From positions 5,135 through 69,134 of the forward strand of contig JAZKZW010000082.1 in NCBI GenBank assembly GCA_045612865.1: a stretch of DNA of 64,000 bases, read 5' to 3'. Made by a program: the position numbers and the translations under genes. The stretch comes from Eubacteriales bacterium (GTDB lineage Bacteria > Bacillota > Clostridia > Oscillospirales > CAG-272). This document shows, piece by piece, positions 54,449-55,225 of the stretch. Under the pieces are notes generated by a model that saw only the letters and a list, made by a program, of their open reading frames with translations, was not told where the DNA came from and searched no databases. Numbering within the stretch: position 1 is the stretch's first letter; every line of letters starts with the position of its first letter.

Positions 54449-55225
54449 TTATAATAACGCCCATTCTTTATCTGTATATTTTTTAATTTCTTTTTTAGTG
54501 CATGGTAAATTTTCAACATTACACCATTTACGGATTGCATTATCGCTAACTCCATATTGGGTAGCGATTTTTGTAAAAGGCAGCGTACGAATTAGTTGTT
54601 TTAATTCTGCGCGATTAGGTCTATTAACGACAGTTCTGCTAGCTATTCTTGCACATTTTTCACATCGTTCAGCTTTAGAAGAGGATATTTCAACTCCGCA
54701 ATCTTTACAATAATAATGCTATTTTATATTTTTTCCTCCACTACCACTTCTAATGGGATAAATTAAAGAATCGTTATGCCAGCTATCTCCACTATTAATG
54801 CCACTAATTAAACGCTATGATACGCCAAACTAATTAGCAATTTCTGTTTGACTCAAAGTGGTATTTTTAAGAAGTTCATAAATTTTCGACACTTCTGTTT
54901 CTGTAAGCTTGGCTCTTAAGCCCTGCGATCCTTGACCGCCTTTTGTTTCATTATATCCTTTTTGTGGATTATAAGAATCAAAATATGCTATCCAATATTT
55001 TTCTCTATCATCCAATTGAGCTTTTGTACATTCCTCCAATATTTGAAAAGAAAAATTATCTAATGAATATTTTCTTATTGCAGAATAAAAATGTCCAAAA
55101 TAGGCATCATTTTTAGGATTAAAAGGTGCGGAACGGTGCTTTCGAAAGCGAGCTTCAATATCAACGCTCTATCCAATATAAACCTTGCCATTAATTTTGT
55201 TTGTAATTTTATAAATTCCTACCAT
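54449..55225 (-). CDS. GIY-YIG homing endonuclease; four in-frame TAG codons, first at 55169-55171 inside the GIYKITNKINGKVYIG[TAG]S motif
   Basis: ATG 55225 with AAAAGGAGGA RBS; 259 codons to TAA with only TAG interruptions; C-terminal zinc finger CKDCG...CEKC. Confidence 0.6.

Follow-up and report, generated by a model that had tools for sequence, protein, structure and literature searches.

The 64,000-nucleotide stretch analysed here (positions 5,135 to 69,134 of contig JAZKZW010000082.1, assembly GCA_045612865.1; hereafter the window) carries on its minus strand, at 54449-55225, a gene of the GIY-YIG homing endonuclease type whose reading frame contains four TAG codons. The question raised by this locus is whether these codons are genuine stops in a dead gene or are translated, and, if translated, as which amino acid. 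Our answer, which we consider very probable, is that TAG is read as glutamine by a phage suppressor tRNA derived from tRNA-Gln, and that the gene is an intact, mobile homing endonuclease gene (HEG) inserted into a tRNA-Arg gene.

The open reading frame (ORF) runs from an ATG at 55225-55223 to a TAA at 54451-54449 and comprises 258 sense codons. Codons 19, 132, 137 and 169 are TAG (55169-55171, 54830-54832, 54815-54817 and 54719-54721, respectively, all on the minus strand); in-frame TGA and TAA are absent. With these two triplets together making up ~5% of random codons at the approximate base composition of the window, the chance of a 258-codon frame free of both is estimated at ~1e-6. An AGGAGG Shine-Dalgarno sequence lies at 55240-55235, 9 nt 5' of the ATG. 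The predicted product begins with MVGIYKITNKINGKVYIG-TAG-SVDIEARFRKH, exactly as described in an earlier, sequence-only reading of this stretch, which had also pointed out the three further TAG codons and the splitting of the gene under the standard code, in which we find it to fall into five pieces. The tryptic peptide predicted across codon 19 is VYIGQSVDIEAR.

By homology, the gene is to be regarded as an intact, free-standing GIY-YIG homing endonuclease gene encoding 258 aa. When TAG was masked as X, the Pfam GIY-YIG profile (PF01541) matched residues 2-84, straight across the first TAG (E=5e-9, 36.8 bits versus a cutoff of 22.6), and the PHROG family phrog_7168, annotated as "homing endonuclease", matched the product at 3e-38. 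Additional Pfam matches were obtained to HTH_11 at residues 113-140 and to HTH_Tnp_ISL3 at residues 209-235 (E=1e-6). The two halves of the signature motif, ~10 residues apart, are G3-I4-Y5 and Y16-I17-G18, and all the family-invariant columns are retained (G3 I4 Y5, Y16 G18, R26, E75, G90 Y91 N92), as is H30 in a column nearly invariant among 121 aligned sequences. R26, H30, E75 and N92 align with the catalytic residues of I-TevI, numbered R27, H31, E75 and N90 in that enzyme. The worry that the N-terminal fragment might be non-homologous noise is thereby removed. Further along, cysteines C173, C176, C188 and C191 form a CxxC..CxxC zinc finger and are invariant in the family alignment; with the HTH matches, this finger makes up the distinct, sequence-specific DNA-binding part expected of a free-standing homing endonuclease. 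The earlier description of a TAA following an intact C-terminal zinc finger was accurate as to the finger and as to the TAA, the only one in the frame, but the finger is not the last element of the protein: a helix-turn-helix (HTH; ~residues 203-240) lies between it and the stop codon.

To see which residue is expected at each TAG, homologs of the product were collected from a large protein database (2513 sequences, mostly ~250 aa in length), and the columns of the 121-sequence alignment were inspected in 119 full-length homologs. At the first TAG, the residue is Q in 116 of the 119, in agreement with the proposal that this codon occupies the conserved glutamine following the YIG motif. The third TAG, in a central HTH-like segment (GVSQRLIS), also falls in a conserved glutamine column (Q in 98/119), while the second (K 51, Q 29) and the fourth (K 40, E 16, I 13, Q 12), the latter in a linker directly before the zinc finger, are in variable columns. 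Because database proteins may already have been translated with TAG as glutamine, the codon following YIG was also read directly from the DNA of 75 related IMG/VR loci; it was CAA in 43, CAG in 12 and TAG in 8. The eight TAG loci hold 2-13 more in-frame TAGs each and therefore derive from other recoded phages. The sequence-only reading had named glutamine or serine as the usual residue at this place; glutamine is indeed overwhelmingly predominant in this subfamily, but serine, although present in I-TevI, was encountered at only one of the 75 viral loci. When recoded and non-recoded homologs were aligned, 56 columns were conserved at a level of at least 60%, a single one of them being a glutamine column, and that column was TAG in 10 of the 11 recoded sequences. 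A 258-aa protein 100% identical to the predicted product, with glutamine at the four TAG sites, is present in NCBI (P0001), on a contig of 105,973 bp.

A different view of the same frame is that of a gene in decay, a defunct homing endonuclease in which amber nonsense mutations have piled up and TAG is a true stop. Homing endonuclease genes do decay often, and five pieces under the standard code is what such decay could look like. Every one of the four stops, however, is TAG; the 258 codons include neither TGA nor TAA, frameshifts are absent, and the catalytic and zinc-binding residues are all intact. Further evidence came from metagenomic orthologs of two other lineages, one represented by contigs L081 to L084 and the other by L085, which are ~80% identical to the gene at the nucleotide level, share its 259-codon frame including the TAA, and contain 8-9 TAGs each. 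TAG at codons 19, 132 and 137 is common to all three lineages in spite of differences at 20% of nucleotides, a degree of divergence at which the orthologs are not copies of one recent sequence. The ratio of nonsynonymous to synonymous substitution rates (dN/dS), calculated for three pairs with TAG taken as glutamine, was 0.15-0.22, and third-position differences dominate. Because of this ratio, the intact invariant residues and the conservation of TAG, we conclude that purifying selection acts on the gene, which is therefore no pseudogene. The lack of TAG among the terminators of the 47 long non-HEG ORFs of the window, described below, points in the same direction, and decay is thus an exceedingly improbable account of this locus.

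If TAG is translated, a tRNA able to read it is needed, and one is encoded in the window. ARAGORN identified 25 tRNA genes, none of them on the plus strand, to which Rfam adds one more for a total of 26. Among them is a tRNA with anticodon CUA, which reads UAG, at 22444-22519 (Rfam tRNA score, 46.4 bits). It folds into an ordinary cloverleaf, and when compared with the 24 other window tRNAs its closest paralog was tRNA-Gln(UUG) at 45026-45105 on the minus strand (76% identity and an alignment score of 32, the next best score being 15). Common to both are the D arm, the G2-C71 and G3-C70 pairs, A72, the discriminator base G73 and U35. The shared features are those recognized by the glutaminyl-tRNA synthetase (GlnRS) of Escherichia coli and kept in its supE suppressor. 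tRNA(CUA) thus appears to be derived from tRNA-Gln, and these features suggest that it would be charged with glutamine. A second suppressor candidate, at 47186-47257 on the minus strand, was rejected; it is a tRNA-Asp(GUC) with an atypical T arm that was missed by ARAGORN and scores 43.8 bits with Rfam.

Several observations weigh against the reading proposed here, and they should be considered together. Columns 132 and 169 are variable, with lysine the commonest residue, and do not discriminate between amino acids. In a Codetta-style tally of 42 TAG columns against divergent homologs, a noisy measure, glutamine was the most enriched residue (1.95-fold), but lysine and glutamate were commoner in absolute terms. 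No gene for a release factor or GlnRS was found among the window proteins scanned, which represent the visible part of the genome. Finally, tRNA(CUA) is preceded by the same host-type extended -10 element as the early genes, so that a "late-only" timing of the endonuclease is no more than a possibility. The first two of these points could be taken to mean that TAG is a sense codon for a residue other than glutamine (pyrrolysine, lysine, glutamate, tyrosine or leucine), as could the "Pyl" label given to tRNA(CUA) by ARAGORN and the exchange, in orthologs, of TAG with AAG at codon 169 (in L085), TCG at 113 and GAA at 186. At the other four of the seven variable ortholog sites (codons 98, 101, 126 and 223), however, TAG exchanges with CAA or CAG; both conserved TAG columns are glutamine (97% and 82%); and tRNA(CUA) is an ordinary cloverleaf most similar to tRNA-Gln. 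The "Pyl" label was taken to reflect the CUA anticodon alone, no other support for pyrrolysine was found, and no pyrrolysine machinery turned up among the proteins scanned in a search that was not exhaustive. TAG-to-glutamine is, moreover, the only reassignment of TAG reported in phages whose code differs from that of the host (10.1101/2021.08.26.457843). A residue other than glutamine is therefore highly improbable. Unlike the all-column tally, the conserved columns alone appear to us decisive, and they indicate that in this phage TAG is a glutamine codon (genetic code 15) rather than a stop.

The distribution of TAG along the window was examined next to these local data. The minus strand from 1 to 62.9 kb consists of a replication and nucleotide-metabolism block, which includes a RecJ-like exonuclease, a primase, a DnaB-like helicase, a Sak4-like annealing protein, an NAD-dependent ligase and two topoisomerase II subunits, together with the tRNA array. 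The 47 non-HEG ORFs of at least 100 aa terminate in TAA (31) or TGA (16) and never in TAG, a count that covers 64 kb of ~106 kb; in the two other frames of the same ORFs, the TAG trinucleotide occurs 185 and 144 times. TAG thus serves in these genes neither to terminate nor to encode an amino acid. No called gene ends in TAG in L081 or L085 either. HEG-type genes contain 26 TAG and 100 CAA/CAG codons as compared to 0 and 394 in the other genes (Fisher p=1e-17), although the zero is partly by construction, the non-HEG ORFs having been defined by the standard code, and the independent fact is the absence of TAG terminators. A like contrast between HEG-type and other genes was observed in L081 (27/30 versus 4/61, p=1.6e-7). 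Since most genes of the block are without any TAG, ORF coverage of the whole window under each stop reassignment was uninformative.

Seven genes of the block carry in-frame TAG, and all are of the homing endonuclease type. Besides the gene at 54449-55225, these are a second GIY-YIG gene, with NUMOD3, at 57764-58594 (minus strand, two TAGs), in which the YIG-glutamine codon is CAA but is TAG in the L087/L088 ortholog; a protein with a C-terminal GIY-YIG domain and, as read from its sequence, a probable N-terminal coiled coil, at 11070-12227 (minus strand, four TAGs); a LAGLIDADG-type gene at 18491-19423 (minus strand, one TAG), which forms two ORFs in the standard code; and three paralogs of an endonuclease-like family (phrog_559/9084) with a Cys-repeat and an EYDGxxH motif, located at 24949-25761 (minus strand, nine TAGs), 35176-35934 (minus strand, one TAG) and 59671-60600 (plus strand, opposite to its neighbours, five TAGs). 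The L081 counterpart of the last of these (5361-6089) has six TAGs. An HNH gene at 50480-49842 has none. The Cys-repeat family displays repeated CxCxCG / SCGC motifs, a C-terminal "EYDGxxH" module and a weak similarity to Pfam DUF5889, and behaves like homing endonucleases. Beyond the block, at 62972-63448 on the plus strand (approximate start codon), a small non-endonuclease gene with a hydrophobic N-terminus has one in-frame TAG; its ortholog in L081 (2454-2903, E=3e-11) contains TAGs, and so do the genes lying further out in L081 and L085. A more generally recoded, divergently transcribed block probably begins at the right edge of the window. What we regard as new in these data is the confinement of TAG, within the replication/tRNA block, to seven genes of the homing endonuclease type.

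How the focal gene came to its present place was addressed with the aid of relatives in which the site is empty, IMG/VR phage contigs L086, L087 and L088 (100-135 kb). In these, the homolog of the nucleotidyltransferase-like gene that forms the left landmark of the site (55607-56440 on the minus strand of the window) ends 12-17 bp before a tRNA-Arg(TCT) gene, with no HEG in between; an HEG is present at that position in the window, L081 and L085. The locus is thus conserved and polymorphic for presence or absence of the endonuclease gene. The left flank in L085 runs through the first 29 nt of tRNA-Arg(TCT), 27 of the 29 being identical to L086, and then passes abruptly into a leader of the form AATTTTTGGTATAAT...ATATAATAATGAA...AGGAGG...ATG, which is conserved in L085, L081 and the window. 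In the window, the leader, as delimited by alignment of the three sequences, occupies 55226-55314 on the minus strand and contains, upstream of the Shine-Dalgarno sequence, an exact extended -10 promoter-like element (TGGTATAAT, 55302-55294) and a second, ATATAAT. It is adjoined upstream, at 55315-55325 (minus strand), by an 11-nt remnant of the 5' end of tRNA-Arg(TCT), ACGGGATTAGC; the remnants in both L081 and the window are shorter than that of L085, having been eroded. The simplest reading of this arrangement is that a free-standing HEG cassette entered the tRNA-Arg(TCT) gene after approximately nucleotide 29.

The fate of the tRNA gene itself differs between the phages. The endonuclease gene is directly followed in L081 and L085 by tRNA-Ile(UAU), and the tRNA-Arg(TCT) gene of these two phages has therefore been destroyed. 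The window has an intact tRNA-Arg(TCT), located 11 nt 3' of the HEG stop codon (54363-54437, minus strand). Compared with the L086 allele, the two strands of its acceptor stem match except at base 1, whereas differences are found in the D arm, the anticodon stem and the T arm. Given the point of entry of the cassette, the tRNA-Arg(TCT) gene is a likely cleavage target of the enzyme, and the divergent allele in the window is a candidate for a resistant copy. The possibility of an intron-encoded endonuclease was also considered and was rejected: a scan of the window at Rfam gathering thresholds returned tRNAs and one ROOL RNA only, with no group I or group II intron, and in L081 and L085 the HEG is not followed by the remaining 3' half of the tRNA. 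Like the restricted distribution of TAG, the insertion of this cassette in a tRNA-Arg(TCT) gene that is intact in related phages is new.

Two further features were noted in the vicinity of the site. Between the nucleotidyltransferase-like gene and the cassette there is a 78-codon ORF (55361-55597, minus strand) that is absent from L086 to L088 and whose product is hydrophobic and resembles a membrane protein. In addition, genes situated directly before a tRNA end in a GC-rich hairpin with the stop codon in its loop, followed by a spacer of ~5-7 nt and then by the tRNA (54443-54463 in the window, ~6795-6822 in L086 and ~10763-10783 in L085); such a hairpin may be a processing signal.

The promoter-like element of the cassette leader is one of many. 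The extended -10 motif TGnTATAAT is matched 57 times in the window as against 23 expected, a number reached in none of 100 shuffles, and the matches are located mostly upstream of minus-strand genes (for example, at 55294-55302, 22544-22558, 42230-42238 and 57739-57747). This enrichment suggests promoters of the host sigma-A type throughout the block, a class that the early genes would seem to share with the endonuclease gene and with tRNA(CUA). A generic promoter and terminator scan around the focal gene performed no better than on shuffled sequence; a promoter function of the leader is proposed from its sequence and conservation.

Taken together, these results are best explained by the following scheme. 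The window is part of a tailed phage that reads TAG as glutamine (genetic code 15); the tRNA(CUA) at 22444-22519, presumably charged via the host pathway for tRNA-Gln, would decode the four TAGs of the endonuclease gene; and this gene would constitute a mobile cassette, equipped with a promoter-like leader and a ribosome-binding site of its own, that was inserted in tRNA-Arg(TCT) at the head of the tRNA array. As only the HEG-type genes of the block carry TAG, their translation would have to wait for the suppressor tRNA and would be possible only once it is available, the block being otherwise compatible with the standard code.

A related scenario is that suppression is partial and that TAG serves mainly as a throttle, most ribosomes terminating so that a potentially toxic nuclease is kept at very low levels. 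The concentration of TAG in nuclease genes would fit such a role, as would its position, since every one of the 12 recoded homologs has its first TAG between codons 10 and 25. The YIG-glutamine column was found to be TAG in eight of nine recoded lineages, as compared to a TAG share of 9-64% among the other glutamine-type codons of these genes (Poisson-binomial p~0.003), a value that must be read in the knowledge that the sample was partly picked for TAG at this column, that the lineages may share a recoded ancestor, and that a constrained glutamine codon drifts only among CAA, CAG and TAG. With the 8-9 TAGs present in orthologs, however, inefficient suppression would leave practically none of the complete protein, whereas purifying selection is seen to act on the ORF in its entirety. 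We consider this scenario unlikely; it is also a quantitative variant of translation of TAG as glutamine rather than a true alternative to it.

An additional idea suggested by the same data is that selection places the reassigned stop early in selfish nuclease genes, at the YIG-glutamine within the first 25 codons, as a kind of "code lock". The evidence for it consists of the HEG-restricted TAG in a TAG-free replication block, seen in two genomes, and of the TAG in eight of the nine recoded lineages. If this were true, the endonuclease would be made only in cells already holding the phage suppressor tRNA, which would prevent premature or toxic expression and would restrict these mobile genes to phages that are themselves recoded. 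We put this forward tentatively, as a rather doubtful proposition.

Several other features of the window deserve mention. The tRNA array contains a full-length ROOL RNA (Rfam RF03087; 42702-43321, minus strand; 161.6 bits versus a gathering threshold of 99.1). A tRNA at 52677-52751 (minus strand), without an encoded CCA, was assigned a four-base anticodon by ARAGORN, implying an 8-nt anticodon loop, and similar assignments were made in L081 (11896-11973) and L087 (9779-9869), the anticodons of the three being agtt, ttgg and tgga; these could be either an ARAGORN artefact or unusual tRNAs. The block also encodes an RNA ligase (26919-28106), a nicotinamide phosphoribosyltransferase-like enzyme (37846-39057) and a sigma factor of its own (28216-29127), all on the minus strand. 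An 822-aa ORF at 30767-33235 (minus strand) matches the shoulder domain of the major vault protein (PF11978, 1e-25), Vault_3 and Band_7, and is fully overlapped by a stop-free antisense frame of 797-850 codons (30761-33313, plus strand) without any match in Pfam. At 39756-41288 (minus strand) there is a gene for a second SPFH/flotillin-like protein.

The practical consequence of these findings concerns annotation. The focal gene and six other endonuclease genes fragment under the standard code, and the genome must therefore be called with translation table 15, as the public record evidently already has been. Recoding of TAG to glutamine in phages is already well established and is not new; together with the identical, glutamine-translated protein in NCBI, this means that the sequence-only reading had overestimated the rarity of the case. 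Our current understanding of code reassignment in phages is left unchanged. One more lineage is added to the TAG-to-glutamine phages, along with a clear example of a pattern previously reported only briefly, namely that selfish HEGs within a standard-code early region carry the reassigned codon. The tRNA-Arg insertion, with its intact, destroyed and replaced alleles in related phages, constitutes a testable homing system.

Parts of this system have well-known counterparts. The supE suppressor of E. coli is a tRNA-Gln with a CUA anticodon that arose by mutation in the host and suppresses amber codons partially, and U35, G73, G2-C71 and G3-C70 are identity elements for GlnRS. tRNA(CUA) resembles supE in keeping all of these; it differs in being a separate phage gene, with 24% of its positions different from tRNA-Gln(UUG), that would serve a fixed code change. 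In I-TevI, a catalytic domain is followed by a zinc finger and then by a C-terminal HTH, and the same broad layout of catalytic domain, zinc finger and HTH is predicted in the focal protein, as it is found in the T4 Seg enzymes. The similarity to I-TevI (PDB 1MK0, 1LN0) is weak (E=3e-4) and limited to the catalytic domain, in which the Tyr, Arg, His, Glu and Asn residues match; I-TevI has Ser where the focal family has Gln or TAG.

Phages using genetic code 15 (TAG to Gln) were reportedly described by Ivanova et al. in 2014. TAG-to-Gln phages are now known from many clades, among them crAss-like and further phages of the gut, in association with CUA suppressor tRNAs and with replication genes in the standard code (Borges et al., 10.1101/2021.08.26.457843). 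The window resembles them in the TAG at a conserved Gln, the CUA tRNA, the lack of TAG terminators, the standard-code replication genes, the low GC content (~38%) and the large tRNA complement. It differs in that TAG is limited to HEG-type genes over a 63-kb block and in having no nucleotide-level relative in the annotated collection: a megablast search with 20 kb of the window gave no match among 50,697 annotated phage records, and the tblastn matches of a topoisomerase subunit were all at or below 36% identity. The phage thus seems to belong to a lineage without a close annotated relative. In Peters et al. 2022 (PMC9523058), metaproteomics is described as having validated TAG as Gln in crAss-like phages. 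phAss-1 has many tRNAs, with CUA suppressor tRNAs predicted to insert Gln, and the argument from TAG at a conserved Gln was made there for the terminase (PMC10607447).

Closer to the present observations is an intron endonuclease in an early gene of an Agate phage, which was found to be preferentially recoded, with TGA, and was interpreted as being blocked in its synthesis until the code switch (10.1101/2021.08.26.457843). In both cases a selfish endonuclease in a standard-code early region preferentially carries the reassigned stop. The Agate gene, however, is intron-encoded and uses TGA (to Trp), whereas the gene studied here is free-standing and uses TAG (to Gln), and is one of seven such genes from three or four endonuclease families. 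With regard to function, the closest precedent is SegB of T4, a free-standing GIY-YIG endonuclease located in the T4 tRNA cluster (PMC2330249). The two genes are alike in being free-standing, in their position among phage tRNA genes, and in their presence or absence in related phages; they differ in that the T4 genes are written in the standard code.

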